64,000 bases of DNA from an uncultured Verrucomicrobiae bacterium. GTDB lineage: Bacteria > Verrucomicrobiota > Verrucomicrobiia > Limisphaerales > UBA11358. The stretch spans positions 192,241-256,240 of the forward strand of contig CAWHAH010000004.1 in the NCBI GenBank assembly GCA_963827205.1, read 5' to 3'. The position numbers were made by a program, and so were the translations under genes. How positions within the stretch are numbered: the first letter of the stretch is position 1; the number at the start of each line of letters is the position of its first letter. Positions 13,333 through 64,000 of the stretch are shown piece after piece. Below the pieces are notes generated by a model, which saw only the letters and a program-made list of their open reading frames with translations, made no database searches and was not told the origin of the DNA.

Positions 13333-16668
<3,336 letters not shown>

Positions 16669-40608: not shown

Positions 40609-40640
40609 ACGGTCAAGCCCGTCCTCCAACCATAAACCCC

Positions 40641-42827: not shown

Positions 42828-42876
42828 TGGTTTTTTCGCTTGTCGGCTTGATGGTTCCATTTCAAGTTGCCGGGAT

Positions 42877-43533: not shown

Positions 43534-43592
43534 CGGGGAAAACGTTCCAGAAATTCAGACGGTCACGGTGATCGAAGCCTCCGCCCAGGCGA

Positions 43593-44468: not shown

Positions 44469-44477
44469 GCACGAAGG

Positions 44478-45494
44478 TTAAGCTCCATTTTCCCAAGGCA
44501 AAAGTTGTTTCGCCAGGAAACCCAGCCGGGTCGCCGGCGACGGTTCGTTCCCTTCGCCCAGCGAGCCATGCGTCAAAATCCGTTCGTAGTAACCGAGATA
44601 TTTTCGCGCCGTGTCCAGGTGTGTGAATCCGCCGCGCAGCACACGGTCACGGCACGCCGCCGGACTGAACCGCTGCGGATGCTTCGCCGCCTCGGCAAGT
44701 TCGACCATTTTGGCGCTCAACGTGCCGGTTTCCGGCGTGACGATTTCGGGCAACGACCCGTATGGCGTGGCCACGACGTAAGCGCCGCTTACCAGCGCCT
44801 CGGTGACCGCCAGACCGAAGGGTTCCTCCCAGCGCACCGGGAAAATCAAGCAACGCGCCCGGGACAGCAATTCCTCCTTTTCCGGTTTGCCCAGCAAGCC
44901 GTAATAGCGGACACCCCGGATGGGGGGCCACCAGCGCTGCAGACGCAACGGCCAGTCGCGTGAGCCAATCACCCGCAGTTCCAGACCGGCGCGGCGCGCC
45001 GCCGCCACGGCGCCGTGAAAATTTTTCACTTTCCACCGTGCCTTGGCCAGAAACAGGGCATAGTCCTCGCGCTTTTCCGCAAACCGAAAATCATCCGGGT
45101 TGATTCCCGGATAAACGAAATGATGTGACCCGTGGTTTGCCGCGTGCCGCCGCGAGACAAAGACGGTGTTCGGCGGGAATTGCTCGCCCGGCCGGCCGTT
45201 GCCGTGAACTGTCAGCAAATACGGCTTGTTGACGATCCCTCGGGGCTGTTCGTGAAAATGCACGATGTCCGTCGCATCCGGAATCAGATTCAACCAGGCT
45301 TGCGGATTTTTTTCATCCGCTGCCAGCGTACGCAGTTCCGCACCGGGAAGGCGGCTTTCGGCATTGGCAATCAGTGTCACGCGATGCCCCAACGCTATCA
45401 ATGCCTGGCCGAGCCAGAAAATATAACGCTCCGTCCCGCCGTAAAGTCTTGGCGGGACTGGAATTTTCCCAAGCTTGTAAAGCGTGACGTGCAT
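44478..45494 (-). CDS. Glycosyltransferase family 4
   Basis: GGTERYIFWLGQALIALGHRVTLI and CLIFPVRWEEPFGLAVTEALVSGAYVVATPYGSLPEIV. Confidence 0.9.
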   Translation of the reverse strand: MHVTLYKLGKIPVPPRLYGGTERYIFWLGQALIALGHRVTLIANAESRLPGAELRTLAADEKNPQAWLNLIPDATDIVHFHEQPRGIVNKPYLLTVHGNGRPGEQFPPNTVFVSRRHAANHGSHHFVYPGINPDDFRFAEKREDYALFLAKARWKVKNFHGAVAAARRAGLELRVIGSRDWPLRLQRWWPPIRGVRYYGLLGKPEKEELLSRARCLIFPVRWEEPFGLAVTEALVSGAYVVATPYGSLPEIVTPETGTLSAKMVELAEAAKHPQRFSPAACRDRVLRGGFTHLDTARKYLGYYERILTHGSLGEGNEPSPATRLGFLAKQLLPWENGA

Positions 45495-45507: not shown

Positions 45508-47574
45508 CTACTGCGTCCTTCCGAACTTTTTCTCGAGTTCCCGGTAGTTCATTTCAATCAGCGTTGGCCGGCCGTGCGGGCAGGTATAGGGCATCGCACA
45601 ATGGCGCAGATCCTCGACGAGCTTTTCCAGTTCCCGTCCGCCGAGGGGATCGTTGGCCTTCACGGCGTGCCGGCAGACGGTCTTGGCAATCGTGTGCTCG
45701 CCCAGCCGGGCGAGATTCACCTCGCGTCCCGCCGCCTTCAACTCGTCCACGAGGTCGAGCACGAACCGGCGAGGGTCGGTTACTTTGACGAACGGCGGCA
45801 GGGTGTCCAGCAAAAACGTCCGCTCGCCGAATTCACTCAACCCGACGCCCAGCCGCGTGAGCACGGGCAACTGCTCCCGCAAAAAATTCGCGTCGCGCGC
45901 CGCCAATTCAATCGTCTCCGGCAGCAGCAGCTTTTGCGACGGCGCGGAACCGCTCTGCTCAATCCGGTTCAACATTTGCTCGAACAAAATCCGCTCATGC
46001 GCGGCGTGCTGGTCGAGCAGGACCAGTCCGCGGTCGGATTCGAGCACCACGTAAAGTTTGCCGATGACCCCGATGAGGCGCAAAGGGACATTCAAAAGCG
46101 GAGTTGGCCCGGAAGACGGCGGTCGCAGGTCCGGGGTCGGAACCGCCGGGGGCGGCGGCGAGGATGGAGGATGGAGGATGGGAGATGGCGTTTGCGGTTC
46201 GGATGTTGCCGGCGCGGCCGCCGCGGCTGACGGTGAATAGCCCTTTTTCAAGGGAGCTGGTTGCGTTGGAACCTTCGGCGGTTCAACCAGCGCCGGCTTC
46301 AGCTTTTCCGGAAAATTGGGCAGCGCGGAAGTTTCGGGCGCAGGCTTTGATTGAACAATTTCCGGCCGCCCGGGTTTTTGACCCTGCGTTTTCTGCATCT
46401 CTGCGTTAAAACCGGCCGTTGGTTTCGGAAGTTCGGAATGAAACGCCAGTAGCGTCTCGCGCATGGCTTGGGCGGTAAATTTGCGGATTTCCAGTTCGCG
46501 GTGGAATTTCACCTCGCGCTTGGCCGGATGGATATTCACGTCCACCGCCGCCGGATCAATTTCCAGGAACAGGCAGCAGACGGGATAACGGCCTTTCATC
46601 AACGTCGTGTGGTAACCTTCGAGCAGGGCGTAATTGAGCCCGCGATTTTCCACCGGACGCCGATTAACGAACAAGTGCTGGCTCTCGCGGGTCGCGCGCG
46701 ACACGCCCGGCGCGCCGATGAAACCCCAGATTCGGAGTTCGCCCGTCCTCCGCAGTAGCTCTGCTACGGGGGGTGGAGAGTTCGCGGTTCGGAGTTCGGA
46801 GTTTTCCGGCGAAGCGGTTTCAAAAATATCGGTTTCTTCCGATTTGAAGGGGTCGTCGAGGGCAGCCAGGAAGTTCACGGGCAATAGCTTTTCATCGCCG
46901 AGCAGGGCGCGGAGGCGCTCGCGCAGCGCCTCCAGCCGGCTCGAAGTGGCCGCGCCGGATTTTTGCGCCGGCAATTGCCAGACAAACCGCCCCTCTTTTT
47001 GGAACGTGAACGCGACCTCGGGAAACGCCAGTGCGGCGAGCGTGAGGTAATGCTGGACGTGCGCGGCCTCGGTTTCCTCGGTGCGCAAAAATTTCCGGCG
47101 CGCAGGCAGATTGAAAAAAAGCTGCCGCACTTCGACGTTGGTGCCGGTCGCGCTGCCGGCGGCCTTGACTTCGGCAATTTTTCCGCCGTTGACAACGACC
47201 TGTGTGCCTTCGGGCGAACGGCCGTCGCGTTCGCGCGTGGTCAACGTGAAACGACTGACGCTGGCAATGCTCGGCAGCGCCTCGCCGCGAAAACCCATCG
47301 TGGCGATCGCCGCCAAATCCTCGGCCCTTTGAATCTTGCTCGTGGCGTGGCGTTCGAGGCAAAGCAGCGCGTCGTCACGGCTCATGCCGGTGCCGTCGTC
47401 GGTCACGCGGATGAGGCTGCGTCCGCCGGCCTGGATTTCGACCGCGACTTTTCCTGCGCCGGCATCGAGGGCATTCTCAACCAGTTCCTTCACGACGCTC
47501 GCGGGGCGCTCAATCACCTCGCCGGCGGCGATTTGATTGGCGACCTGTTCGGGCAGCAGTTTGATGCGGTTCAT
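45508..47574 (-). CDS. mutL: DNA mismatch repair protein MutL
   Basis: LLPEQVANQIAAGEVIERPASVVKELVENALDAGA and a C-terminal dimerisation region (GQ...YIL..DQHAAHERILFE-like). ATG 47574. Contains a low-complexity insertion (see the repeat feature). Confidence 0.95.
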   Translation of the reverse strand: MNRIKLLPEQVANQIAAGEVIERPASVVKELVENALDAGAGKVAVEIQAGGRSLIRVTDDGTGMSRDDALLCLERHATSKIQRAEDLAAIATMGFRGEALPSIASVSRFTLTTRERDGRSPEGTQVVVNGGKIAEVKAAGSATGTNVEVRQLFFNLPARRKFLRTEETEAAHVQHYLTLAALAFPEVAFTFQKEGRFVWQLPAQKSGAATSSRLEALRERLRALLGDEKLLPVNFLAALDDPFKSEETDIFETASPENSELRTANSPPPVAELLRRTGELRIWGFIGAPGVSRATRESQHLFVNRRPVENRGLNYALLEGYHTTLMKGRYPVCCLFLEIDPAAVDVNIHPAKREVKFHRELEIRKFTAQAMRETLLAFHSELPKPTAGFNAEMQKTQGQKPGRPEIVQSKPAPETSALPNFPEKLKPALVEPPKVPTQPAPLKKGYSPSAAAAAPATSEPQTPSPILHPPSSPPPPAVPTPDLRPPSSGPTPLLNVPLRLIGVIGKLYVVLESDRGLVLLDQHAAHERILFEQMLNRIEQSGSAPSQKLLLPETIELAARDANFLREQLPVLTRLGVGLSEFGERTFLLDTLPPFVKVTDPRRFVLDLVDELKAAGREVNLARLGEHTIAKTVCRHAVKANDPLGGRELEKLVEDLRHCAMPYTCPHGRPTLIEMNYRELEKKFGRTQ
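46728..46815. repeat. CGGAGTTCG-unit repeat with a central small hairpin, in frame inside mutL
   Basis: ttcggagttcg (46731-46741), gtagc tct gctac, then ttcgcggttcggagttcggagtt (46781-46802). Translated as SPENSELRTANSPPPVAELLRRTGELRIW, just before the conserved GFIG. Confidence 0.45.
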
Positions 47575-47909
47575 GCGCTTCGCGAAACGGCGGCATTCAT
47601 CCATCCGCCGGGCCAATGCTACAATGCAATGAGGCAGCGTTTCAACGATTCAACGATACGGCATCGTCGAGAAGACGAAACGGGATGCCGGCCAGAGGGG
47701 ACGGTCATGGGCACTTTACGAAAAAATTTGCTGACGTAAAGCCAAGAGATGCAAAGCCAAATGCCCGAGAATGTGCATGATAACTTATTGACAAACAGCC
47801 CACAAAAAGCAAGAATGAATCATTCGGGTGGCAGTACGTTTCTTCAGCGGGGTTCCCCACCCCCACCTCCTTGGCGTCTGCTGCCCGAATTTGTTTTCCG
47901 CAAAGCTCC

Positions 47910-47953: not shown

Positions 47954-48030
47954 GGGGGCGTAGCTCAATTGGTTAGAGCGCTGCCCTGTCACGGCAGAGG
48001 TTACGGGTTCGAGCCCCGCCGCTCCCGCCA
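47954..48030 (+). tRNA. tRNA-Asp (anticodon GTC), CCA encoded
   Basis: Hand-folded cloverleaf. Acceptor GGGGGCG/CGCTCCC (one G-U). D stem GCTC/GAGC. Anticodon stem CTGCC/GGCAG with loop CTGTCAC. T arm CGGG-TTCGAGC-CCCG. Discriminator G, then CCA. Confidence 0.95.
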
Positions 48031-53385: not shown

Positions 53386-53667
53386 TTACGGTTTACCCAT
53401 CAGCGAGTTCTGATGTTTGGCAACGGTTGCCGCCATGGTGTTGACACTCTGGAGAATCTGGCGTGCGGCCTCGGGATCGGCAATCTTGAGTCCATACGTC
53501 TTGTCAATGGCCACAACCAATTGCAGGGCGTCCACCGAATCCAAACCCAGACCGCCGGGGCCAAACAATGGCTGGTCATCGCTGATTTCTTCCGGACAGA
53601 TTTGGAGCATGAGATTCTCCACCATCAGTCGTTTGATGTCCTGTTTGAGCGCGGCTGTAGTATCCAT
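53386..53667 (-). CDS. Acyl carrier protein
   Basis: LGLDSVDALQLVVAIDKTYGLKI contains the phosphopantetheine Ser motif (DS). 93 aa from ATG 53667. Confidence 0.88.
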   Translation of the reverse strand: MDTTAALKQDIKRLMVENLMLQICPEEISDDQPLFGPGGLGLDSVDALQLVVAIDKTYGLKIADPEAARQILQSVNTMAATVAKHQNSLMGKP

Positions 53668-53775
53668 TACAAAATCACACCATTCATTCTGAAGAACGAA
53701 TTTTGCGACAGAGCCGGGTTCAGCGCAAGCCGGGAAGCAATTGGGCAACGGTCCCGTTGGAAGTGATGCTGTTGG

Positions 53776-54237
53776 CTACGGACTGGGTCGGGCGGCATGA
53801 CCGTCTTTCGGTTTTCCCACCAATGATGCGAGCTTTCTTTCGGCAGTCTCCGTGTCCGCCATTCCTTGGGATTGGATGGGTTTGGTCGTCTGCACCGCTC
53901 CCTCTTCCGCCACCTGGGAATGGGGAGAAATCCGTGATGCTTCGGGGTACGCCCGGCGTATCAGCAGTCCGCCGCCAATCAACCACCAGGCGACAGCCAG
54001 GTTAAAAACCATGGGCAGAAGCGCATTTAGAATGTCGCTTTTACCAGCGGTCTCAATGGCGCCGAGGTCCAGCAGCGGTGGTACGGCGCTTAAACCGAAG
54101 TAAAGAAATAGAAGCCCCAAAAGCCGGACGGCCAGGCCGAAGATGTCCTTGAATATGTCTCTTGATTTCATGGTGTGCTGAATCTGTGCGTGCGCTAGTT
54201 GAATAAGTTTACCGTCGTCGTCGAGCTTAGATGGCAT
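53776..54237 (-). CDS. Hypothetical membrane protein (2 TM helices)
   Basis: IFGLAVRLLGLLFLYFGLSAV and LLPMVFNLAVAWWLIGGGLLI. Directly upstream of the ACP gene on the same strand. Confidence 0.6.
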   Translation of the reverse strand: MPSKLDDDGKLIQLAHAQIQHTMKSRDIFKDIFGLAVRLLGLLFLYFGLSAVPPLLDLGAIETAGKSDILNALLPMVFNLAVAWWLIGGGLLIRRAYPEASRISPHSQVAEEGAVQTTKPIQSQGMADTETAERKLASLVGKPKDGHAARPSP

Positions 54238-54366
54238 CGGCGGGCTTGTTCAAGTGCTTTCCCGTTTGCGGAGAAGCGACCGAAATCGCGTCATGGGCGG
54301 TTCCGTTCCAATAATTTATCATTTCATCTTAGACACACCTCGCCCGATCCGCTAAATATTCGCGTC

Positions 54367-56220
54367 ATGTTTTTCGGCCCGAGTTCCGGTGGATCAGTTC
54401 GTGCAAGTGGAAATGCAAGCCGGACACTTTTGCTTGTTTTTTGGGCTCTGTCAGTCTTCCCTTTCAAGGGCTTGGCGCTCCCCGGACGACTGGTCTTGGG
54501 CCTGGATGGAGTTGCTTACCGCGACATGAAAGCCTTGCAGGAAGGGGTCACGTACACGAACACTTGGGGCAAGCGGTTGCATCGCCGGGCGTTCGGCCCC
54601 GATGAGGGATACTTTCCGGTCAGCCGCCTGGTTTCGACGTTTCCGTCCACGAGCGACGTTGCATGGACCGACATTTTCGGCGACCGCCCGCTGCCCGGTT
54701 ACCAACGCACGTATTTCAGCGCCGCGGCGAATTCGCAAATTGTCATCAACGGCATCACCACCACCATGGAGCACGAAAGCCAGATGAGTTGGGAAATGGA
54801 AAACAACCTGCTGCGCACCATGGGTTACGTCTATCCGGTTCACACGTTTGACCACGAGATACGCGAAACGATCAGGAACTTTTGGAACGACACGGGCAAT
54901 AATGGCAGCTACTACGTCTATATTCGCGCCACGGACGATGCGCAGCACCTGGACCGCGACATCTTTGCCATGCTCTGCAGACTGGATGAGCAGCTCCAGG
55001 CGATGCGTACTCGGTATCGGGCGCAGGAAGGGCGCGATCTGCAAATCCTGATTCTCTCGGACCACGGGCACAATCACGCCGGTTCCTTCAAGCGCGTCGA
55101 AGTCCGCGCCTTGCTGGAAAAGGCCGGATACCGGATTACCGAATCCATTCAGCAACCCAAGGACGTGGTCCTGCCCACCACCGGCATAGAAGACTGGGTG
55201 GAAATCCACAATGCGCCGGGCGCCACCAAAACGCTGATGCCGCTGCTCACCCGTTTGGAAGGCGCGGACCTCGTGACGGGCCAGGACCCGGATCATTCCA
55301 ACCATTTCCTCGTCATGAATTCCCGGGGCGAACGGGCCGGTATTGACTGGAATCCAACAAATAACACCTACCGCTATTCAACCGAAACCGGCGATCCGCT
55401 CGGCTACCGTCCGGTGGCCGAGGCGCTTGCCCGCCAGAACAGGTTCGATGCCGGCGGATTCGCCGCCGCCGACACGTGGATGGCGGCGACCCTGACCAAT
55501 CACTATCCGCTGGCGCCGGAACGGATTGTCCGCGGCCTCACGCGGGTCACCCTCAACCCCGCCACCATTCTCATCAGCCTGAGCAACGACTACGTTCACT
55601 GCGGCTGGCTGATTCAGAAAGGCGCGGACCTGTCAACGTTCAGCAGTACTCACGGTGCGCTGGACAACCTCAACTCGGACGGCATCGTGTTGAGCAATTT
55701 CACGCCCACCCGGGATACTTCGAGCGACCGGGTGGCCGGACAGTTTGATGATTTTCCCGGACTGCGAAATTTTCGCGCGATGGAAAATGGCGCCGAATTG
55801 CTCACCAAAAATGAACAGGCCCTGACGCGGATCGCGCACGAACCGTTTGACTCAGATTACCAGTCGCTGCCGGAAGATGGGGTTTTCCTGCGGGTCTGGT
55901 CGCCGCGATTCACTCATTTGGACGCGCAAGCGCCAATCGAGGCAACGATTGAAAAAGTCCAGCATTTCTCGAACGCGCAGAATCCTCATGGAGTTTTCAA
56001 ACCGGCACCCGCCTTGGGACGGCACTTGACCTTCGACCGGCCGGTTTCCTTTTCCGACCCCTGCGCTTACGAAAGAATCTATGCGCTCCCGTCCGATTTG
56101 ATTCTGAAATCGCAAACGGAGTACCGGATTTCGGGATGGATACGCGATCGAAACAAAAGCATCAGCCTCTTTGAGTTCAATTTTTACACCGACAGCCAAG
56201 GCCGGCCGGCGGCGTATTGA
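54367..56220 (+). CDS. Alkaline-phosphatase-superfamily protein (type I phosphodiesterase / nucleotide pyrophosphatase-like), secreted
   Basis: Signal-like N-terminus, LVLGLDGVAYRD (metal Asp), STFPSTSDVAWTDIFG (nucleophile Thr/Ser region) and ILILSDHGHNHAG. ATG 54367. Confidence 0.8.
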   Translation: MFFGPSSGGSVRASGNASRTLLLVFWALSVFPFKGLALPGRLVLGLDGVAYRDMKALQEGVTYTNTWGKRLHRRAFGPDEGYFPVSRLVSTFPSTSDVAWTDIFGDRPLPGYQRTYFSAAANSQIVINGITTTMEHESQMSWEMENNLLRTMGYVYPVHTFDHEIRETIRNFWNDTGNNGSYYVYIRATDDAQHLDRDIFAMLCRLDEQLQAMRTRYRAQEGRDLQILILSDHGHNHAGSFKRVEVRALLEKAGYRITESIQQPKDVVLPTTGIEDWVEIHNAPGATKTLMPLLTRLEGADLVTGQDPDHSNHFLVMNSRGERAGIDWNPTNNTYRYSTETGDPLGYRPVAEALARQNRFDAGGFAAADTWMAATLTNHYPLAPERIVRGLTRVTLNPATILISLSNDYVHCGWLIQKGADLSTFSSTHGALDNLNSDGIVLSNFTPTRDTSSDRVAGQFDDFPGLRNFRAMENGAELLTKNEQALTRIAHEPFDSDYQSLPEDGVFLRVWSPRFTHLDAQAPIEATIEKVQHFSNAQNPHGVFKPAPALGRHLTFDRPVSFSDPCAYERIYALPSDLILKSQTEYRISGWIRDRNKSISLFEFNFYTDSQGRPAAY

Positions 56221-56225
56221 GAAAC

Positions 56226-57803
56226 TTACGGTTCGCTTGCCGCAAAGATTTTTCCGTTGCTGGCGCAAATCATCTGGGCGACGTAGCGGCCCGAAAGCGC
56301 AGCTGACGGCAGTCCGCCGCCCGCCACCACCCAGTGGCCGGCCATGTAAAAATCCCTGAGTCCCGGCAACGTGTAGGGAATGCGCCGGCCCAGAATCCGC
56401 GGCGTCGGCAGCCAGCCTTCATAACTGCCCTGCCAGTTGCCGGTGTAACGCACAAACGTCGCCGGCGTCGCAATGTCGGAACGATCCAGATTTTCCGCCA
56501 ATCCCGGAAATCGTTTGTCGAGGATGGCAATGATTTCCTGAACAACTCTTTTTTTCTCGACCCGGTAACGTTGCGGATCGCTCTTCTTCAAGCCGGTCCA
56601 AAACTCGTAGCTGGTCGGCAACCGGACTGTCATGACGCTGGTGCCGTCCGGGCAAAGCGCCGAATCAGAGCCAAACGTCTCGACCTCCAAACGATCGTGC
56701 TTTGTTTGATCATCCACGCACAGGGATTGGGCCAGTGGCAGATTGAGTGTGTGGGGCGCGTCCGGAAAAACTTTCTTTATTCCCAGCGAAACCTGGATGA
56801 TGGCCGGAAAGGGCATGCAATTTTCGTAGAGGTAACGGATTCTTTTATCCACGAAACGCCCGTCCAACATCTTGAAAATTGTCGTGTGTCCATCCGCGCA
56901 GGAAACAACGGTCGAGGCGGGGACGACCGTTCCGTCGTCGCAACGCACGCCGACGGCGCGATTATTTTCGACGATGACCGAAGCGACCTTGGACTTGTAT
57001 CGGATGGTCCCACCGAGACGGGTGTAACGATCCGCGATGGCCATGGCAAAATCCCACGAGCCGCCGGCGACGAAACCGCAGTTGTTGCGGGTCCGGAACG
57101 CCAGCACCATCACGAGCACGAGGGCTGACATGTGTTCGTTGCTGGCGATGGCACTGAACGCTTCGCGCACAAGGTTGTTTTTGTACCGGGCCAGGTAGGC
57201 GGTGATGGGCAGGTTTTTCCATCTCAAGATGACGGGCAGCATCGGCAGGTAACGCAGGCCCGTTCGCATCTTCTCGCGGTGCGTCATCAGTTCCACCGGC
57301 TTTTCGAGCGGCGGTTCCAATGGCGCGCAGCGGCGCGCCGCCCGCACCAGCTTCTCAATCAGAACGCTATCTTCTGGCGAGACTCGTTTGAATTCGCGCG
57401 CGAGTTCATCCAGGTCAGCAGGCACGGAGAGGGTGTTGCCACTGGCGTCTTCGACCCGAAGCATTTCGTCGTGGACAAAAACCTTTCGCCCGGCGATGGC
57501 GCCGAGTTCCGTCCAGATCTGGTGAAAGGCTGAAGGCGGTTGCGCGCCGATGAGCCAGCGCAGGCAGCCGTCGAAGACATACGGTCCCCGGTGCCAGGCC
57601 GTGCACAATCCACCGGGAAGCAAACTCGCCTCCAGGATTTCGGTCTGGATGCCGTTCATTTGCAGGTAGCAACCGCAGGACAGACCGGCAACGCCGGCGC
57701 CGATGATGACTACTTTTTCCTTTCCCGGCGTTGCGGCTGCGGGTTCAGGTCCCTTCGCTGCCGTACGCGGCTGGTCTTCAACTTGCATCGCGTCAGTAGC
57801 CAT
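56226..57803 (-). CDS. FAD-dependent oxidoreductase, phytoene desaturase (CrtI)-like family
   Basis: KVVIIGAGVAGLSCGCYLQMNGIQTEILEASLLPGG dinucleotide-binding motif, 525 aa, C-terminal GHWVVAGGGLPSAALSG. The start overlaps the stop of the upstream radical SAM gene by 11 nt. Confidence 0.9.
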   Translation of the reverse strand: MATDAMQVEDQPRTAAKGPEPAAATPGKEKVVIIGAGVAGLSCGCYLQMNGIQTEILEASLLPGGLCTAWHRGPYVFDGCLRWLIGAQPPSAFHQIWTELGAIAGRKVFVHDEMLRVEDASGNTLSVPADLDELAREFKRVSPEDSVLIEKLVRAARRCAPLEPPLEKPVELMTHREKMRTGLRYLPMLPVILRWKNLPITAYLARYKNNLVREAFSAIASNEHMSALVLVMVLAFRTRNNCGFVAGGSWDFAMAIADRYTRLGGTIRYKSKVASVIVENNRAVGVRCDDGTVVPASTVVSCADGHTTIFKMLDGRFVDKRIRYLYENCMPFPAIIQVSLGIKKVFPDAPHTLNLPLAQSLCVDDQTKHDRLEVETFGSDSALCPDGTSVMTVRLPTSYEFWTGLKKSDPQRYRVEKKRVVQEIIAILDKRFPGLAENLDRSDIATPATFVRYTGNWQGSYEGWLPTPRILGRRIPYTLPGLRDFYMAGHWVVAGGGLPSAALSGRYVAQMICASNGKIFAASEP

Positions 57804-59118
57804 CGAAATTGTTGTTGGCCGGGCCGGCGTGGGCCATTCGGCGTTGGGAAAAGTTGATGACCCAGGAAGCCAGATTGGACCTGGTCACCGGCAGGGACAT
57901 GCGGGAAATGATGGATGGCAGGCTGTAAAAATCCCGATACATTTTCCGGACGTTTTGTTCCAGCTCCACCGGCGAGCCGTGAGGCGGCTTGATGTGGCAG
58001 AGTTGGCCCGGCCAGCGATCAATCTCCCGGCTGTCCGTGATGCGTTCTTCGCCCTGCAGGCGGTCGTAAAGTGGCGTCCCCTTGACCGGCGTCAGAATGT
58101 TGAAGTAGGCAGCCGGAACTTTGTGGCTCTGAAGGAAATTCAGCGTGGCGTGAAAGGCGCCTTCAGTCTCGCCGTCCCAGCCAAAAATAAAATTCAAGGA
58201 GTAACTGATCCCGCGGCGGCGGAGATTGGCCAGCATTTCCCCGTAGCGGGAGGTTTTGTTGAACTGTTTGTTCATGCCCGCCAGCGTATCGGGATTGATG
58301 CTCTCGATGCCGATGTTGACGTGCAACAGGCCGCTGCGCTGCGCGAGGTCCAAAAATTCCCCGTCGTTGCACAGGTAGGATGACCACAGGGCCGACCACC
58401 GCACCTTGAGCGGGACCAATGCCGCCATAAGTTCCATCGCGTGACTCCGCTTGCCGGCAAAATTGCTGTCGCCGAACAGGATGTTCCGCAAGCGCCAGTG
58501 CCTGATTTCCTCAATGACTTCGGGCACCGGCCGGCATCGGTACTTTTCGCCCAGCAGAAAACGTTCGGAACAAAATTCACATCGGAAAGGACATCCCCGC
58601 GACGAAGAAACCGTGAAGGTCTTAAAAGGCCCGTAGTAGTGCAGGTTCAATAGTTCGTAACGAGGCAGAGGCAGACCGGCGAGATCGGGCAGCAAGTCGG
58701 CCTGGTAAACTTTCTTCAGCCGCCCGTGAAGGGCGTCCTCCAACATTTGGGTCCAGATTCCCTCGGCCTCACCAATACCAACCGCATCGCAATGTTCTCC
58801 CGCCTCCTCGGCGTGAAAAAATGTGTGGGGTCCGCCGAGAATGACCGGCACGCCGCGCCGGCGGAACTCGTCGGCGATGTCGTAAGCGCGGTAGGAATTG
58901 AGTGTCCACGTAGTGATGGCCACGAGGTCAGCGCGATAATCAAAATCAATCGGCTCCAGTTGTTCGTCGAGGAGTTTTATTTTCCAGTGCGCGGGAGTCA
59001 GTGCCGCCAGATAAGGGAGCGTCAACGGCACCACCTGACGACGGCGAACTTTGAACACCGTGCGGTCCGCCTTGGAGCGGTAATACGACGGCTGAATGAT
59101 TAAAATCCGGTTTGCCAT
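57793..59118 (-). CDS. B12-binding domain-containing radical SAM protein (class B)
   Basis: MANRILIIQPSYY...DLVAITTWTLNSYRAYDIA...VILGGPHTF (B12 domain), then SSSRGCPFRCEFCSE (CxxxCxxC). ATG 59118. Confidence 0.92.
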   Translation of the reverse strand: MANRILIIQPSYYRSKADRTVFKVRRRQVVPLTLPYLAALTPAHWKIKLLDEQLEPIDFDYRADLVAITTWTLNSYRAYDIADEFRRRGVPVILGGPHTFFHAEEAGEHCDAVGIGEAEGIWTQMLEDALHGRLKKVYQADLLPDLAGLPLPRYELLNLHYYGPFKTFTVSSSRGCPFRCEFCSERFLLGEKYRCRPVPEVIEEIRHWRLRNILFGDSNFAGKRSHAMELMAALVPLKVRWSALWSSYLCNDGEFLDLAQRSGLLHVNIGIESINPDTLAGMNKQFNKTSRYGEMLANLRRRGISYSLNFIFGWDGETEGAFHATLNFLQSHKVPAAYFNILTPVKGTPLYDRLQGEERITDSREIDRWPGQLCHIKPPHGSPVELEQNVRKMYRDFYSLPSIISRMSLPVTRSNLASWVINFSQRRMAHAGPANNNFDGY

Positions 59119-59272
59119 GTTATTCGTTGGAGCGCAGACAGCCATGTCCGCGAGTTCCGGGCCTCGCGAGTTTGTGCGGACAAAGCTGTCCACGCTCCGG
59201 GCTTCGGTTCGGGCGGGCAGAAGGCCCTGCGCAATTCCTTGGCCCCACGTTTCATCGCCACCACGTTACTGG

Positions 59273-60004
59273 TCATAAAATTCCGCCGTCAACTTTGAGG
59301 ACGGAACCGGTGATGTAGCCGGCTTCGGCACTCGCCAAAAAACGGACTGCCGCCGCCACTTCTTCGGGCCGGCCAAATCGGCGCATGGGAATCCTCATTT
59401 GCGCGGCCTTTCGTTCCTCTCCGGCTAGAGCGGCCAACGCCTCGGTTTCCACGAAGCCGGGACAGACAGCATTCACGGTGATGCCGATGCGCGCCACTTC
59501 CTTGGCCAGCGACTGGGTCAGCGCGACCACACCCGCCTTGGCCGCAGCGTAGTTGGCCTGACCCGCCGGGGCCAGGAGCGCGCTCAAGGATGACAGATTT
59601 ACAATCCGGCCGGCGCGCTGGCTGATCATCGTTGGCAACACGGCCTGACAACCGTGAAAGACCCCGTCGAGATTTGCCGCCAGAACGCGCCTCCATGAAT
59701 CCGCCGGCATGGTGGCCAGCAACGCGTCTTCGTGGCTGCCCGCATTATTGACTAGGACATCCAGGCGGCTGTGGCGCGCCAACATTTCATTGACCGCCTG
59801 TTTCCAGGATTCGGGAGAGGTGACGTCAAGAGCGACGCAGAAGCAGCGGTCGGGATTCGCCAGCGCCATCGTGTCGGCATGTTCCCGCCGGGAACGGACT
59901 CCGAGCCAGACCATGTTGGCGGGCGACTCATCCAGAAAGGCGCGAGCGATGGCCTGGCCCAGCCCGCCATTGGCTCCGGTAATGAGAATGACCCGCAAGC
60001 TCAT
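59273..60004 (-). CDS. fabG: SDR-family 3-oxoacyl-ACP reductase-like
   Basis: ILITGANGGLGQAIA, NNAG, S...YAAAKAG catalytic triad region, and C-terminal GSVLKVDGG. Confidence 0.9.
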   Translation of the reverse strand: MSLRVILITGANGGLGQAIARAFLDESPANMVWLGVRSRREHADTMALANPDRCFCVALDVTSPESWKQAVNEMLARHSRLDVLVNNAGSHEDALLATMPADSWRRVLAANLDGVFHGCQAVLPTMISQRAGRIVNLSSLSALLAPAGQANYAAAKAGVVALTQSLAKEVARIGITVNAVCPGFVETEALAALAGEERKAAQMRIPMRRFGRPEEVAAAVRFLASAEAGYITGSVLKVDGGIL

Positions 60005-60029
60005 GACTGAATCCTCAATTGTGCATTCG

Positions 60030-60100
60030 AAAGCGGCGTCGCGCTGCGCTTGCCGCCGCAGTCCAAGACGCTGGCGCGCCAGCCGCGTGTGGCTGAAATA
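60030..60100. repeat. GC-rich intergenic repeat (translates as FESGVALRLPPQSKTLAR)
   Basis: ttcgaaagcggcgtcgcgctgcgcttgccgccgcagtccaagacgctggcgcgcc. I recall this peptide pattern from spurious ORFs in Verrucomicrobia/Planctomycetes. Only one copy is in the window. Confidence 0.35.
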
Positions 60101-60143
60101 ATTGTGACGCGAATGTTCATTCCGTTAAGAGTTTCAGAAAAGA

Positions 60144-61220
60144 TCATGGCCGGATGTTGCCCGGTGATCCACCGGCGGACAAATGAGAAATACCGGAATC
60201 GTCACGCGCAAACCGCGCCCCCATCGCCTGCTGATTGGAGCCCACCAGACTGACGTTGGCAGCCGCAAATCGTCCACCGGCCACCGCATCACACGCCGCC
60301 ACACATTGCCAGGCGGCGGTGGCCATCAATCCTTCGCCCAGGATCCGCTTGGGGCTGATACGCGGGCCGGTCCAATCACGCCAAGCGGCCAGTTCCGGAG
60401 CATCCGCGCGCGGACTGCTCCCGACACCGTCGCAAAGCAATTCTTCCGGAGAACTTTGACCCAGTTGACCGCGCATGATACGGGCGGCTTGCGTCCGGTG
60501 GTTGCGAGGGGAGTAGGTGTGCGCATCGGTGATGGCGGCCAGTTCGACACCGGCCGACAGTTCCGGCTCGCGGCACAAACACAAGGCCCCGGCGCCACCG
60601 GTGATCACGGCCGGGCGTTCGAGATGCCAGAGTGCGTCCGCCAGAATCCAGTTCGTCTCTTCAGCGCCGATGACGAGGCATGCATCCACACGGTGCTCTT
60701 CCAGCCACTGGACGCCGACGGCTATGCCTTGCAGGAAGGAGGCCGGATCGCCCACCAGGGAACTGGCCAGGGAAACATTTTCCAGAACCGCGGCAACATG
60801 GCTGGCCGGGGCGGCGTAAACCGTTTCAGGGAATAGAAGCGGACTGGCGGTCGCCGGGTCCTTCAATATCTCGTCAAAAAACCGGCAGGAATAATTCACG
60901 CAACCCGATTGAAGACAGACCACCAGACCGAGGCGATGTTTTGAATCACGAATCGCGCGCAATCCGGCGGTGGCCTCGAGCGCGGTCGCCACAGCATAGT
61001 GCGTGATTGGACTTGTGCGTCGCAGACGCGGATGCGCCAGAAATTCCGGACGGACAGTGGGATTCGGCACCAGACGCGCCTGGAGTGGCCTCGCCCAACC
61101 CGGCCGTTCCATGGGTTGTGTCGGCAGTGGCTCGCCCTTGTCCAGCGCTTCACGCAGGGCAGCGACATTCCAGCCGGCGGGCGATACCGCGCCCAGTCCC
61201 GCTATGAAAACCCGGCTCAT
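60144..61220 (-). CDS. Beta-ketoacyl synthase-like protein lacking the active-site Cys (chain-length-factor-like)
   Basis: Thiolase-fold layout (VFIAGLGAVSPAGW...) but LVGDPASFLQG sits where KS enzymes have xACxSx. GAGGAGG lies 5 nt upstream of ATG 61220, which overlaps the fabF-like stop (ATGA). Confidence 0.85.
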   Translation of the reverse strand: MSRVFIAGLGAVSPAGWNVAALREALDKGEPLPTQPMERPGWARPLQARLVPNPTVRPEFLAHPRLRRTSPITHYAVATALEATAGLRAIRDSKHRLGLVVCLQSGCVNYSCRFFDEILKDPATASPLLFPETVYAAPASHVAAVLENVSLASSLVGDPASFLQGIAVGVQWLEEHRVDACLVIGAEETNWILADALWHLERPAVITGGAGALCLCREPELSAGVELAAITDAHTYSPRNHRTQAARIMRGQLGQSSPEELLCDGVGSSPRADAPELAAWRDWTGPRISPKRILGEGLMATAAWQCVAACDAVAGGRFAAANVSLVGSNQQAMGARFARDDSGISHLSAGGSPGNIRP

Positions 61221-62458
61221 GTCCACCTCCTCAAAATCAAGGTCGCATTGACGCCACCGAACCCGAACGAGTTGGATAGCGCGACATTCACGTGCGCATC
61301 CCGCGGTTTTTGCACGATGGGAAACTGGCAGGCGGGGTCGGGAGTTTCAAACAGTGTTTCCGGCGGCAGCCATTGTTCGCGCAGGGTCATCAGGCAAATC
61401 ACGGCTTCGACCGCGCCCGCGGCTCCGAGGAGATGCCCGATGCTGGCTTTGGTGGAACTGACCGGCAGGGTCGCGGCCCGGCGGCCAGCCCATTCGCTGA
61501 TGGCGAGTGCTTCTGAACTGTCATTGAGCACCGTGCCTGTGCCGTGCGCGTTGAGGTAATCAATTTCCTCGGGTGTGACGCCCGCGGTTGCGCAAGCCTG
61601 CTTCATGACCGTTAACGTCGTGCTGCCTTGCGGGTGAGGCTGGGTGAGATGGTGCTGGTCAATGGCCGTGCCGTAGCCGATGAGTTCTCCCAAGATGACC
61701 GCGCCCCGCCGGCGCGCACTTTCAAGAGTTTCAAGGGCAACAACTGCCGCGCCTTCTCCAAGCGCCAAACCATCGCGGCGGGCATCGAACGGACGGCAGA
61801 TGGCGGGCGAGAGCGCCTGTAAAGCGTCGAAACCTGAAAACACGAGTTCACTGAGCGCGTCATAACCGCCGGCCAGCGCGCGTTCAGCCTGGCCGTAACG
61901 AATCAACTCCCAGGCATGGCCGATGGCGTTGGCACCGGAAGCGCAAGCATTCGAGACAATGGTGATCGGTCCGTTGAAACCGAGAGCGTCAAGAACCATT
62001 CGTGCCTGGACTTGTGGCTGGTAATGAACGGCGCGCGTGGGTTGGCAACGATGGCGGTGCGGCATTTGCACCGCCTGACGGAAATACGCTTCGCCGAACG
62101 ACATGCCGCCAGCGGTCGTGCCCAAAATCAGCGGCAGGTTCTCTGCGGGTTCCCAACCGGATTGTTGCCAGGCTTCCTGGGTTGCCAGCAGCAGCAAAGA
62201 CGCGGCGCGTTCAAGTCTGGCAGTTTGTCTGGCGTTGAGACGGGTCGGTGGCAGGGTTGCCGGCAAATCAATTTCCGCCGCGCTCTTTGCCCGCTGACGG
62301 CTGACATCGAACAGCGACACGGGACGAAACGCCGTGCGCCCTGTCCGGAAACCTTCCGCGTTGGGTTTCCAGCCCAAACCGAGAGCTGTAATTATTCCGG
62401 CACCGGTGATAACCACCCGGGAAGGCGTTTGGGGCGGAGACGTTGTCGGGAAGAGCAT
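61217..62458 (-). CDS. fabF: Beta-ketoacyl-ACP synthase II-like
   Basis: IVSNACASGANAIGHAW (Cys), NAHGTGT and KASIGHLLGAAG (His/His), GFGGVNATLIL. Confidence 0.92.
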   Translation of the reverse strand: MLFPTTSPPQTPSRVVITGAGIITALGLGWKPNAEGFRTGRTAFRPVSLFDVSRQRAKSAAEIDLPATLPPTRLNARQTARLERAASLLLLATQEAWQQSGWEPAENLPLILGTTAGGMSFGEAYFRQAVQMPHRHRCQPTRAVHYQPQVQARMVLDALGFNGPITIVSNACASGANAIGHAWELIRYGQAERALAGGYDALSELVFSGFDALQALSPAICRPFDARRDGLALGEGAAVVALETLESARRRGAVILGELIGYGTAIDQHHLTQPHPQGSTTLTVMKQACATAGVTPEEIDYLNAHGTGTVLNDSSEALAISEWAGRRAATLPVSSTKASIGHLLGAAGAVEAVICLMTLREQWLPPETLFETPDPACQFPIVQKPRDAHVNVALSNSFGFGGVNATLILRRWT

Positions 62459-62682
62459 GACGGTTGAATGTCAGTAGGATTTAGCTGTGCGAGGGTGCAG
62501 GCCGGCGATGATACATTACTCGCCGGTCGAGTCTCGCGCTTACAGCATCGCTCGCATCGTTCAATTCGGTTTCAGAGTATAATCCCGTGGCGTCATCGGG
62601 CAACGGAAAATCCGCCCGCAATTCAGCCCGGCGGGCAAAGTTTTGCCTCGATTCCCGGAGGCATCCCACCCAAGCTGCGCTG

Positions 62683-63435
62683 ATGTTTGCAGCGAAAACC
62701 TGTGTGGCGGTGATCCCCTGTTTCAATGAAGGGGCAACGATCGCGCCCCTGGTCGCGGCCGTGCGCCGATATCTTCCGTCGGTGATGGTTGTGGACGATG
62801 GCTCGACCGATGACACACCGGTCCTGGCCAGGGACGCCGGCGCAATGGTGGTTGGTCACCGTCAAAATCGTGGCAAAGGCGCGGCGCTGCGGATCGGATT
62901 ATCCGAAGCGCGTAAGCTGGGATTTGAGCGCGTCGCGACCCTCGATGGCGACGGCCAGCATGCGCCGGAGGATTTGCCCGTCTTTCTGGATTGTGCTGAA
63001 CAAACCGGGGCGCGGCTGGTCATCGGCAACCGCATGCACAATGCGCGGGCCATTCCCTGGCTGCGCCGGCAGGTGAATGGGTGGATGAGCCGCAAACTGT
63101 CACGGCTGGCCGGCCGGCGCCTGCCTGACACGCAATGCGGTTTTCGACTCATCCATTTGGAAACTTGGTCGGCCCTGCTACTCAAAACGGAACACTTCGA
63201 GGTCGAATCCGAAATGTTGTTGGCCTTTCTTGAGGCGCGGTGCCAGGTTGAGTTTGTTCCAATCCAAGTCATCCGCAGCCGACGCCGAAGCCGCATCCGT
63301 CCGGTGACCGACTCGGTGCGCTGGTGGAAATGGTGGCAAGACCTGGACCGGTCCTTCGCGTCAAACGCTTGCCGGGAAAGACACCCGCACAGGCTCACTT
63401 GGTTGGATTCCAGACGTACTTTCCGCTCGCGTTAA
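62683..63435 (+). CDS. Glycosyltransferase family 2 (DPM1/ApeJ-like small GT-A)
   Basis: VAVIPCFNEGATIAPLVAAV...VMVVDDGSTDDT...LDGDGQH...QCGFRL. ATG 62683. Confidence 0.85.
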   Translation: MFAAKTCVAVIPCFNEGATIAPLVAAVRRYLPSVMVVDDGSTDDTPVLARDAGAMVVGHRQNRGKGAALRIGLSEARKLGFERVATLDGDGQHAPEDLPVFLDCAEQTGARLVIGNRMHNARAIPWLRRQVNGWMSRKLSRLAGRRLPDTQCGFRLIHLETWSALLLKTEHFEVESEMLLAFLEARCQVEFVPIQVIRSRRRSRIRPVTDSVRWWKWWQDLDRSFASNACRERHPHRLTWLDSRRTFRSR

Positions 63436-64000
63436 TGTATCCGAATCTACCGCCCGCCTTGACGCGCGCCAGTCCATTCACAAAGGGGTCGGCTTCGTCA
63501 AACTGCGGATTAATCACGAATTTCCCAGTGGGGTCAATGAATCCCCAGTGCTTCGCCTGACGGACCGGGGCCAGTCCCTCGGAAAACGCGGCGGCATCAT
63601 CAAATTGCGCATTAATCACAAATTTTTCGGTAGGATCAATGTAACCCCAATGTTTCCCCTGCCGGACCGGCGCCAGGCCGTTCACCAAGGTTCCCGCATC
63701 CTCGAACTGCGGATTGACGATGAGTTTCCCGGTTTTGTCAACGAAGCCCCATTTGCCGCCCGACCTGACCGCTGCCAGCCCCTCGGAAAACGGTTGCGCC
63801 CGTTCAAACTGCGGGTTGACCACAATCTTCCCGGTCTTATCAATGAACCCCCAACGGCCACCCAACCTCACGGGCGCAAGCCCGCCGACAAACGCGCCAG
63901 CGTCTTCAAACTGCGGATTGATGGCGTACTTGCCGTCCGTACTGATGTAGCCATAGCGACCGCCGCTGCCAAAGGGATGGTAAGGCCTGGGGTCGTAGGG
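63395..64000 (-). CDS. WG-repeat (KWG-type beta-propeller-like repeat) protein, N-terminus outside window
   Basis: At least 6 units of G.WG(F/Y)ID.TGK.VINPQF..A..F..GLA.V. The frame stays open to the window edge. Its 3' end overlaps the convergent GT2 gene by 41 nt. Confidence 0.85.
   Translation of the reverse strand, partial: PYDPRPYHPFGSGGRYGYISTDGKYAINPQFEDAGAFVGGLAPVRLGGRWGFIDKTGKIVVNPQFERAQPFSEGLAAVRSGGKWGFVDKTGKLIVNPQFEDAGTLVNGLAPVRQGKHWGYIDPTEKFVINAQFDDAAAFSEGLAPVRQAKHWGFIDPTGKFVINPQFDEADPFVNGLARVKAGGRFGYINASGKYVWNPTK

Follow-up and report, generated by a model that had tools for sequence, protein, structure and literature searches.

The closest described system is Cluster I of the anammox bacteria, which according to the literature consists of genes for an ACP, FabZ, FabF2, FabFmut, a phytoene-dehydrogenase homolog (PDH) and a cobalamin radical SAM enzyme. 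Cluster I is the suspected gene set for ladderanes, although no experiment ties it to these lipids, and ladderanes have been reported from anammox bacteria only. For the FabF2/FabFmut pair, heterodimer formation and decarboxylation of malonyl-ACP were shown (bioRxiv 10.64898/2026.05.19.726425). Related clusters of Verrucomicrobia carry the label "ladderane" in antiSMASH surveys; the literature reports no product for clusters of this type, the anammox one included. The cluster described here, from a stretch of 64,000 nucleotides of an uncultured Verrucomicrobiae bacterium (the window), is a variant of that type.

Anammox Cluster I loci were fetched and compared directly with the proteins of the window. 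Identities were 34% between the ketosynthase (KS) and FabF2, 22% (E 2e-8) between its chain-length-factor-like partner (CLF) and FabFmut, 24% over about 480 aa (E 1e-32) between the CrtI-like flavoprotein and PDH, and 30–33% between the radical SAM enzymes (rSAM), where the verrucomicrobial protein belongs to a sister clade and is not an ortholog. In contrast to Cluster I, the verrucomicrobial cluster contains no FabZ and possesses a ketoreductase (KR), and its ACP shows no relationship to amxACP (E 1.5). Judged by these comparisons, it is a distant relative of Cluster I, at 22–34% identity. The likeness to gene sets proposed for anammox ladderane synthesis, which the preliminary description had pointed out, was correct, both with respect to the published composition and to the homology of the fetched loci. 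Production of ladderane-type, cyclobutane-containing lipids, as proposed for Cluster I, would be in line with the shared components (ACP, KS, dead KS, PDH-like flavoprotein and cobalamin rSAM), four of which are homologous, and with the antiSMASH label. We nevertheless regard it as very improbable, considering the low identities, the position of the rSAM outside the anammox clade, the differences in FabZ, ACP and KR, the restriction of known ladderanes to anammox bacteria and the missing experimental link even there.

The nine-gene arrangement, in set and order, was found again in 12 other verrucomicrobial species-representative genomes (loci L001–L012), which is more than chance would produce. 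In a set of 32 verrucomicrobial loci with the rSAM at the centre, the CrtI-like gene was present in 22, KS in 21, CLF in 19, KR in 15 and the alkaline-phosphatase-like gene in 14. At least 7 other species have the rSAM ortholog directly beside an ACP gene (cluster cl18). A larger relative, L017, combines KS, CLF, KR and the ortholog of the window rSAM in one operon with a genuine member of TIGR04072, "lipid biosynthesis B12/radical SAM" (404 bits; cutoff 360 bits). In the sequencing runs searched, the cluster sequence was present only in DNA metagenomes. The gene positions of the preliminary description were all confirmed, and its view of a type-II FAS/PKS-like lipid cluster was upheld; the designation "orphan" was wrong, in view of the many verrucomicrobial species sharing the cluster and of the survey entries.

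The FabF-like KS (positions 61217–62458, minus strand, 413 aa; Pfam ketoacyl-synt 123.6 bits, Ketoacyl-synt_C 113.5 bits) is of the active type, with intact motifs NACASG, HGTGT and GHLLGAAG. It scored 350 bits against TIGR03150 (cutoff 493.75 bits); its PDB matches were Thermus FabF (282 bits) and 9s5h_B (258 bits), the latter presumably amxFabF2, since chain C of the same entry is anammox FabFmut. In the CLF (60144–61220, minus strand, 358 aa), alignments showed Pro/Asp/Glu at the catalytic Cys/His/His positions, so that the claimed pairing of an active with a Cys-less KS holds. The ATGA overlap of KS stop and CLF start is real as well and is preceded by GGAGG 6 nt upstream; the two genes are thus coupled in translation. 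About 2700 relatives of the CLF were found, the best 120 being at least 72% identical. The KR (59273–60004, minus strand, 243 aa; adh_short_C2 200.7 bits) contains the motifs TGxxxGxG, NNAG and YxxxK and reached 255.8 bits against TIGR01830 (cutoff 297.75 bits). Since KS and KR have their highest family scores with FabF and FabG, the genes might be taken for housekeeping fabF, fabG and acpP, located by chance beside unrelated redox genes. This is hardly credible: both scores are under the equivalog cutoffs, fabD, fabH, fabZ and fabI are absent, the second KS, although dead, is maintained at 72–86% identity across over 120 sequence clusters, and the synteny with rSAM and CrtI-like genes extends over 12 species. 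The spacer between CLF and KR is filled by a 48-codon open reading frame (60001–60147, minus strand) with ATGA overlaps at both ends. It was called as a gene in L081–L084; in L001 and L002, where the CLF and KR matches abut, there is no room for it. It is lineage-specific and a putative gene at most.

The class-B rSAM (57793–59118, minus strand; Pfam Radical_SAM 62.5 bits, B12-binding 34.4 bits), designated clade W, has 441 aa when started at 59118, in agreement with the length of about 120 homologs, and its CxxxCxxC motif is invariant in the homolog alignment. All named NCBIfam families were missed by far, the best match being HpnJ with 97 bits, below cutoff. Its fold matched AprD4, TsrM, MgmA and CysS; AprD4 was the best PDB match in both sequence and fold, and among the structural neighbours is CysS (E 6e-10), a class-B enzyme whose substrate is tethered to pantetheine. 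HpnJ and AprD4, among the best sequence and fold matches, are non-methylating and act on sugars, a point against the reading preferred below. In a distance tree the rSAM was sister to the verrucomicrobial clade B together with the anammox Cluster I rSAM; these closest paralogous groups are 30–36% identical to it, and HpnJ is more distant (24–25%).

Orthologs with 60–65% identity occur outside such clusters in Acetobacteraceae, Acidobacteriota and Syntrophales. Those of Komagataeibacter, Novacetimonas, Acetobacter, Acidobacteriota, Elusimicrobiota and Methylomirabilota are without KS, CLF or CrtI neighbours, and no gene family was common to the neighbourhoods of the stand-alone orthologs, which speaks for a substrate without a specific tie to the KS/CLF product. 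The rSAM, possibly with the flavoprotein, could modify a widely available lipid or its sugar head group instead, such as the side chain of a hopanoid or the sugar of a glycolipid, much as HpnJ and AprD4 modify sugars. It would then owe its location in the operon to a common envelope-lipid function and not to a common substrate. About 10 Syntrophales-type loci, in which the ortholog lies beside HpnJ-, HpnL- and HpnN-like genes, the HpnJ being a true one (757 bits; cutoff 577 bits), point in the same direction, as does the family-2 glycosyltransferase gene, which is divergent from the operon, and thus from KS, at all loci where a match was found. We consider this explanation unlikely, though the most serious of the rivals. 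The rSAM is closer to clade B and to the anammox enzyme than to HpnJ, its scores for named families are far under the cutoffs, and most verrucomicrobial loci with adequate flanks place it beside KS/CLF, ACP or other cluster genes. Furthermore, no hopanoid gene was found in the window: searches for HpnN-like and HpnL-like genes gave no match, and those for HpnJ gave only the two B12-radical SAM genes, with 27–28% identity.

The gene downstream encodes a FAD oxidoreductase of the CrtI/CrtISO superfamily (56226–57803, minus strand, 525 aa; Pfam Amino_oxidase 62.1 bits) with a GxGxxG motif and 108 bits against TIGR02734 (cutoff 238 bits). The 11-nt overlap with the rSAM gene, as described previously, exists only if ATG 57803 is the start; gene callers chose the in-frame ATG 57788, 4 nt after the rSAM stop, which yields 520 aa. 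Likewise, the five genes are all on the minus strand as claimed, but the operon is less tight, with gaps of 139 nt between CLF and KR and 154 nt between KR and rSAM. The adjacency of rSAM and CrtI-like genes is lineage-specific, since in other Verrucomicrobia the orthologs lie within one cluster but about 7 kb apart.

The flanking genes named in the preliminary description are present. The dedicated ACP (53386–53667, minus strand; Pfam PP-binding 28.9 bits) has the phosphopantetheine-serine motif GLDSVD and scored 62.3 bits against NCBIfam PRK09184 (cutoff 70 bits); its start at ATG 53667, giving 93 aa, is the likelier one and was called in L081. The neighbouring protein of 153 aa (53776–54237, minus strand; two predicted membrane helices in the translation) had no Pfam or NCBIfam match and was matched by tblastn in six of the 12 loci (L001–L003, L005, L006, L009). 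The protein of the alkaline-phosphatase/NPP superfamily (54367–56220, plus strand) has 617 aa from the likelier start, 54367, and an N-terminal hydrophobic signal or anchor, and is probably periplasmic. Its assignment is marginal (PF01663, 24.7 bits; cutoff 23 bits), and its fold model was of poor quality; the invariant metal-site motifs (D47, T91-F-P-S, S-D232-H233-G, T-H429-G-G) lend support, and some sources name homologs "alkaline phosphatase family protein". The divergent region between KS and the glycosyltransferase gene (62459–62682) contains the one sigma-70-like match of the region searched (62603–62576, minus strand), which is not significant, with 3.2 expected by chance. The glycosyltransferase (GT2; 62683–63435, plus strand; Glycos_transf_2 80.8 bits), with 250 aa from the likelier start 62683, is of the polyprenyl-phosphate-sugar-synthase type; its best NCBIfam matches, PpgS and AglJ, were below cutoff, and the exact protein was found on 7 contigs. 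A gene for a WG-repeat protein (63395–64000, minus strand), of which the window includes the 3' part up to its end, is complete in L084 (10713–11639); a homolog (L001:4824–5840) matches WG_beta_rep. It lies probably outside the pathway.

A contig with 99.95% identity showed that the window covers only part of the cluster, which runs on past base 64000. Following there are genes for a flavin-halogenase-like protein (motifs GxGxxG, WxWxIP and FxxPxxSxG), two AMP ligases, a second flavoprotein (FAD oxidoreductase), a second B12-radical SAM enzyme near TIGR04072 and a protein of 445 aa. Thus the ligase listed earlier as missing is provided for; dehydratase, thioesterase and LolA/MMPL genes were not found in the additional 10 kb either, nor was a match to a canonical aryl-polyene (APE) or flexirubin cluster. 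An aryl-polyene, flexirubin or xanthomonadin-type pigment, for which an aryl or acyl starter activated by the AMP ligases would be converted to a polyene by KS/CLF and KR, optionally halogenated, and anchored to a lipid or sugar, appears improbable. KS, CLF, KR, ACP and GT2 would all be at hand, together with the ligases and the halogenase-like protein, and there are similarities to PRK09184 (ACP, see above), PRK09185 (KS, 285 bits; cutoff 407 bits) and FlxB (KR, 209 bits; cutoff 340 bits). The two PRK families, we assume, derive from APE-type clusters. Yet no APE or flexirubin family reached its cutoff, LolA-like, MMPL, thioesterase and ammonia-lyase genes are absent, and the approximately 37 kb seen contain no hot-dog dehydratase, which polyene formation requires. 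To our knowledge, no APE cluster described so far includes B12-radical SAM or CrtI-like enzymes.

Our preferred reading, which we hold to be somewhat probable, is that the genes described here are one arm of a biosynthetic supercluster of Verrucomicrobia, at least 27 kb long, which produces a specialised lipid with a modified chain on an ACP of its own. KS and its dead partner would form a KS/CLF-type heterodimer, as for the anammox pair, which may prime and extend a chain of defined length on that ACP or, alternatively, extend a starter acid; the fatty-acyl-AMP-ligase-like enzymes, whose genes lie immediately beyond the window, would then load this acid. The beta-keto group would be reduced by KR; dehydration and enoyl reduction could be borrowed from housekeeping fatty-acid synthesis or omitted. 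The B12-radical SAM enzyme may abstract hydrogen at an unactivated C-H position of the chain, while this is tethered or bound in a lipid, leading to methylation or a C-C bond, and the flavoprotein may introduce, move or saturate a double bond. Off-loading, perhaps via an HxxxD-motif protein encoded beyond the window, would be followed by decoration of the chain or its anchoring in the envelope by GT2 and the periplasmic alkaline-phosphatase-family enzyme. Genes for a dehydratase, an enoyl reductase, a thioesterase and an exporter are all absent from the approximately 37 kb seen, so that the gene content does not reveal the chemistry of the chain. A ladderane is not predicted as the product. 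The verrucomicrobial ladderane-type lipid gene cluster is real and conserved in Verrucomicrobia from soil and peat, and its specialised lipid would be assembled on the cluster's own carrier protein.

An ORF listing together with family scans placed all genes of the cluster at the positions assigned to them in the preliminary description. The five core genes lie on the minus strand and encode a FabF-like ketosynthase (KS; 61217-62458) with both Pfam KS domains, a second KS homolog giving weak KS matches only (here called dead KS or CLF; 60144-61220), a FabG-like reductase (KR; 59273-60004), a radical SAM protein with a B12-binding domain (rSAM; 57793-59118) and a flavoprotein of the amine-oxidase/CrtI superfamily (56226-57803). 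In an alignment, the active KS had kept the motifs NACASG, HGTGT and GHLLGAAG, and the Cys/His/His positions of the dead KS were aligned to Pro, Asp and Glu. The KR carries TGxxxGxG and YxxxK, the flavoprotein GxGxxG. Neither KS nor KR reached the level of a housekeeping enzyme: the KS scored 350.1 bits on TIGR03150 (FabF; equivalog cutoff 493.75) and the KR 255.8 bits on TIGR01830 (FabG; equivalog cutoff 297.75). The flavoprotein is not a member of the phytoene desaturase family TIGR02734 (108 bits, cutoff 238.1), and matched Pfam Amino_oxidase at the superfamily level only.

The arrangement had been described as a tight five-gene operon. The common strand and the ATGA overlap at the KS/CLF junction, which is preceded by GGAGG, agree with this; spacers of 139 nt between CLF and KR and of 154 nt between KR and rSAM do not. 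The 11-nt overlap reported for rSAM and flavoprotein genes exists if the ATG at 57803 is used, but an in-frame ATG at 57788 would leave a gap of 4 nt. The CLF-KR spacer is exactly filled by an ORF of 48 codons (60001-60147, minus strand), with ATGA overlaps at both ends; it was called as a gene in L081-L084, the public contigs with the cluster of the same lineage, and in this lineage only. In the related loci L001 and L002 the CLF and KR matches abut, with no space for such an ORF. The same spacer contains a GC-rich inverted repeat followed by TTTCG; as a repeat family this motif was discarded, since it occurs once in the window. Promoter and terminator scans of the cluster gave results no better than chance, and an Rfam scan of the cluster yielded no match, hence no riboswitch.

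[quoted passage not shown] The AlkP assignment is marginal; it derives from a marginal Pfam match, from the annotation that homologs carry in their sources and from motifs with invariant Asp, Thr, Asp-His and His. Its AlphaFold model was poor (pLDDT 55.7) and Foldseek returned no match at E 0.001 or better; the periplasmic domain of YejM, at E 0.014, gives only a hint of a possible relationship. In L082, from a strain 99.95% identical to the window, an insertion of 3.9 kb (14983-18882) is located exactly between the CrtI-like stop codon and the AlkP-like gene (window 56225/56239); it encodes the R subunit of a type I restriction enzyme (1010 aa) and a protein of 192 aa.

Public contigs carry the exact dead KS and GT2 proteins, and one of them, L082/L084, 99.95% identical to the window, shows that the cluster continues past base 64000. 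Found there were genes for a WG-repeat protein, a flavin-halogenase-like enzyme (L084 11869-13113, ~1.9 kb past the window end) with the motifs GxGxxG, WxWxIP and FxxPxxSxG, two AMP-binding ligases, a small protein of the 23S_rRNA_IVP family, a PF12831 FAD oxidoreductase, a second B12-radical SAM protein, which is 77% identical to a protein with 339 bits on TIGR04072 (cutoff 360), and a conserved protein of ~445 aa (L084 19577-20753; L015 12149-13483; 10 orthologs). One of the AMP ligases is nearest to long-chain fatty-acid-CoA ligase families, as judged from its 66%-identical homolog in the verrucomicrobial locus L017. Thus a ligase of the AMP/CoA type, reported as missing from the cluster, is present just past the window. 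On L084 the halogenase-like gene is followed by an AMP ligase gene on the same strand; given the halogenase-like gene, the product of the cluster may be halogenated. On the 98%-identical contig L081 the PF12831 flavoprotein gene, intact in L082, is broken in two (1-644), and a DDE_3 transposase fragment lies between the two AMP-ligase genes.

Searches of Pfam and of PDB sequences with the 445-aa protein found nothing, even at E 1. It contains an invariant W-N-H-A-L-M-D-A-R-G of the HxxxD type near residue 142. Going by this invariant HxxxD(x)2G motif and its position only, it could be a condensation-type or WS/DGAT-type acyltransferase, and off-loading in the supercluster may be its task.

The rSAM, dead KS and AlkP-like protein have numerous homologs in soil, peat and wetland metagenomes, and the organism, where the source names one, is in nearly all cases given as Verrucomicrobiota, Verrucomicrobiia or Limisphaerales. 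Scanning a single genome for each species furnished 80 loci centred on rSAM orthologs, onto which the proteins of the window were mapped. Three arrangements were distinguished among verrucomicrobial loci. In type A (L001-L012; rSAM 82-90% identical) all 12 loci possess KS, CLF, KR, rSAM and CrtI-like genes in the order of the window, and most of those on sufficiently long contigs also have the divergent GT2, the AlkP-like gene and the ACP. Type B (L014, L017, L024, L030, L031) has two additional B12-radical SAM genes before the KS. In type C (L015, L016, L018-L023, L033, L036) the order, where the locus is long enough, is rSAM, ACP, 445-aa protein, second rSAM, PF12831 flavoprotein, AMP ligase and CrtI-like gene. 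Altogether, the CrtI-like gene was present in 22, the KS in 21 and the CLF in 19 of 32 verrucomicrobial loci. The cluster is therefore a conserved but modular system and not a group of chance neighbours.

The rSAM scored 34.4 bits on PF02310 (cutoff 32.1) and 62.5 bits on PF04055, and its CxxxCxxC motif (C176, C180, C183) is invariant. With a model of pLDDT 70.8, Foldseek matches to AprD4, TsrM, MgmA and CysS were obtained at E 5e-16 to 6e-10. On the strength of these profiles and the predicted fold the protein is a member of the class-B superfamily with a predicted N-terminal B12-binding domain; the model confirms the class-B fold, which does not by itself allow the type of reaction (methylation, C-C bond formation or rearrangement) to be inferred. 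The B12-binding domain and the CxxxCxxC core are common to class-B enzymes acting on carrier-tethered or lipid substrates (CysS, Jaw5, HpnP/HpnR, HpnJ); lipid-modifying radical SAM enzymes have been reviewed (PMC13459092). CysS, a fold neighbour, acts on a pantetheinylated substrate and provides one precedent for a tethered substrate. The rSAM was far under the cutoff of every named family that it matched, including TIGR04072 (90.8 bits, cutoff 360) and HpnJ (97.3 bits, cutoff 577.6), and is a member of neither; its identity to true HpnJ is 24-25%. In a distance tree of all rSAM types encountered, its clade, here termed clade W, is tight, comprises several phyla and is sister to a group made up of clade B and the enzyme of the anammox Cluster I; HpnJ, an HpnR-like clade (H5) and TIGR04072-type clades are more distant. 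Another B12-binding radical SAM gene is present in the window 38 kb from the cluster (17908-19464, plus strand, 518 aa); its best family is BchE (176 bits), it is under every cutoff, and it branches outside all cluster-associated rSAM clades.

Clade W orthologs with 60-65% identity were detected in Komagataeibacter, Novacetimonas, Gluconacetobacter, Acetobacter, Acidobacteriota, Elusimicrobiota, Methylomirabilota and many Syntrophales/Syntrophobacteraceae. No KS, CLF or CrtI-like gene was found near these non-verrucomicrobial orthologs, whose neighbourhoods are heterogeneous. Among 131 pooled neighbours compared with NCBIfam no family occurred in more than two members; since these were one representative per similarity cluster, the result shows heterogeneous contexts only. 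About ten loci of the Syntrophales type (L049, L066, L074, L035, L051, L052, L057, L072, L077, L080) have the clade W gene (60-64% identical) beside hopanoid-type genes, namely true HpnJ (757 bits versus a cutoff of 577), HpnL-like membrane proteins and HpnN-like RND transporters, a context which could be that of an uncharacterised hopanoid or head-group function. L049 contains, in addition, an inositol-phosphate-type CDP-alcohol transferase, a nucleotidyltransferase and HAD genes. This neighbourhood favours the main rival explanation, according to which the rSAM acts on a membrane lipid or head group of general occurrence and not on the specific product of KS and CLF. We consider it unlikely. 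In most verrucomicrobial loci with adequate flanks the rSAM gene is beside KS/CLF, ACP or other cluster genes, and in at least seven verrucomicrobial species it is directly adjacent to the ACP. The literature on Acetobacteraceae contains several hopanoid modifications without known enzymes; as a tie to the rSAM of the window it was set aside, since no link to this rSAM is drawn there.

The resemblance to gene sets proposed for ladderane lipids in anammox bacteria, pointed out in the preliminary description, agrees with the literature (PMC2649909; 10.64898/2026.05.19.726425). In Kuenenia, divergent FabF paralogs are clustered with SAM radical enzymes and with proteins resembling phytoene desaturase (Rattray et al. 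2009, PMC2649909). Cluster I, which corresponds to Kuste3603-3608 and orthologs, is a candidate ladderane cluster of unproven function and consists of amxACP, amxFabZ, amxFabF2, amxFabFmut, a PDH homolog and a cobalamin radical SAM protein; amxFabF2 and amxFabFmut form a KS/CLF-like heterodimer, which decarboxylates malonyl-ACP (2026 preprint, 10.64898/2026.05.19.726425). So far no experiment ties the genes of Cluster I to ladderanes (2026 review, PMC13459092; 2016 expression study, PMC4790861). A PDB match, 9s5h_C, provided a fragment of amxFabFmut for use as query, which resulted in 68 metagenome loci. L087 contained a match 100% identical to the fragment and the gene order of Cluster I; most of the remaining loci fetched were 66-96% identical to it. 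Two loci retrieved in this way, L147 and L148, represent another variant of the cluster, with ACP, KS, dead KS, HMG-CoA-reductase-like, KR, CrtI-like and PlsC-type acyltransferase genes; no radical SAM was detected among their listed genes.

In comparisons with L087, the KS was 34% identical to FabF2, the dead KS 22% identical to FabFmut over the N-terminal 215 aa (E 2e-8), the flavoprotein 24% identical to the PDH (L087:9033-10493) over ~480 aa (E 1e-32) and the rSAM 33% identical to the anammox rSAM over 332 aa; across the anammox loci L087-L145 the rSAM values were 30-33% and 164 bits. Both systems have an active KS followed at once by a triad-less KS, a CrtI-superfamily flavoprotein adjacent to a B12-radical SAM on the same strand, and a dedicated ACP. 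The flavoprotein is homologous to the Cluster I PDH; the rSAM is homologous and not orthologous to the anammox enzyme, being placed in a separate clade, and the verrucomicrobial clade B is closer to the latter (234 bits versus 164 bits). The ACP is not of the amxACP type (L087:5695-5964; BLASTP E 1.5, not significant). Further differences are the presence of a KR and the lack of FabZ, in contrast to Cluster I (no FabZ or hot-dog gene was found in the window cluster or 10 kb beyond), the reversed order of rSAM and flavoprotein genes, and the dead KS residues, which are Pro/Asp/Glu in the window, but Val or Thr together with Asn, Glu or Cys in anammox bacteria. The supercluster of the window has GT2, AlkP-family, AMP-ligase, halogenase-like and second rSAM genes in addition, and its host is an uncultured peat and soil verrucomicrobium instead of an anammox planctomycete. 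As judged by these comparisons, the module and Cluster I are distantly homologous but not orthologous.

Extended FAS II clusters with several radical SAM and PDS-like genes, described by Rattray et al. in 2009 for Kuenenia and Desulfotalea psychrophila, are likewise modular and share with the present cluster divergent FabF paralogs, ACPs, several B12-radical SAM proteins and flavoproteins of the amine-oxidase family. The short name of TIGR04072 ("lipid biosynthesis B12-binding/radical SAM protein"), rSAM_ladder_B12, suggests that the family was built on this type. A true member (404 bits) is encoded in a larger verrucomicrobial relative (L017:4088-5509), but the window's own rSAM is outside the family, and the extended clusters, too, are without an assigned product; the polyunsaturated hydrocarbons of Desulfotalea were never linked to them genetically (PMC2649909). 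With aryl-polyene and flexirubin clusters the similarities are the logic of a KS/CLF heterodimer, a FabG-like KR, a dedicated ACP and a glycosyltransferase, to which relatives add an AMP ligase and a halogenase. Unlike those, the window cluster has radical SAM and CrtI-like enzymes. No hot-dog dehydratases, which polyene formation requires, were found in the ~37 kb examined, and dehydratase, thioesterase and LolA-like/MMPL export genes, already noted as missing, are absent from the continuation as well. Scores on families of aryl-polyene and flexirubin synthesis were all under the cutoffs (PRK09185, 285 versus 407 bits; PRK09184, 62 versus 70; FlxB, 209 versus 340).

Directly supported are the genes present, the states of their active sites, the translational coupling of KS to dead KS, the conservation and the homology to Cluster I. 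In a plausible pathway the heterodimer would prime or extend a chain, either on the dedicated ACP or on a starter that the AMP ligases have loaded; the KR would reduce the beta-keto group, the class-B rSAM would functionalise an unactivated carbon and the flavoprotein would alter the saturation state. The product would then be off-loaded and decorated by the GT2 and the periplasmic AlkP-family enzyme.

Envelope-glycan genes are abundant elsewhere in the window (9829-12156, 28417-30240, 35003-36247, 40467-45494) and include a sugar-nucleotide dehydratase/epimerase, an MsbA-like ABC exporter, a heptosyltransferase-like gene and several GT1/GT4 genes; MutL (45508-47616) and tRNA-Asp (47954-48030) are also present. 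The gene dnaE for the alpha subunit of DNA polymerase III (21032-24852, minus strand) is split into two overlapping ORFs, of which 23611-24852 covers profile positions 1-315 and 21032-23635 positions 325-1146; the cause is a frameshift or else an indel in the assembly.

According to surveys based on antiSMASH, Verrucomicrobia are well supplied with "ladderane" clusters, whose functions may be ones not yet known (PMC7298704; PMC8692599); therefore, the kind of cluster was already known bioinformatically, its chemistry not. This limits the value of the present results, which do not reveal the chemistry. New are the make-up of the variant (which has a KR, a GT2, an AlkP-family gene and a clade W rSAM), the extent of the cluster past the window, the measured distance to Cluster I and the broad occurrence of clade W genes that stand alone. 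A tentative and still doubtful proposal would be that clade W represents a new lipid-modifying cobalamin rSAM activity, sister to the Cluster I enzyme, and that KS/CLF, KR, rSAM and flavoprotein perform the same core chemistry as the ladderane candidate, a radical reaction that methylates a short unsaturated chain tethered to ACP or forms a C-C bond on it, for another, as yet undescribed class of lipids.

Ladderane synthesis is a long-standing question, and as of 2026 the candidate anammox cluster had not been linked experimentally to a product. The verrucomicrobial cluster is a distant homolog of its module in organisms which are abundant in peat and soil, with an accessory set unlike that of anammox bacteria: a KR takes the place of a dehydratase, and a glycosyltransferase, AMP ligases and a halogenase-like enzyme are added. 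Clade W is common among soil bacteria and extends to Komagataeibacter; because acetic acid bacteria that can be cultivated possess it, at least the rSAM should be open to genetics. If the core chemistry is indeed shared by clade W and Cluster I, a tractable comparative route to the working of Cluster I would be available. Knowledge of the product would show the generic role of the trio of KS/dead-KS pair, PDH-like flavoprotein and B12-radical SAM, and would replace the misleading label "ladderane", which genome-mining surveys have attached to Verrucomicrobia.
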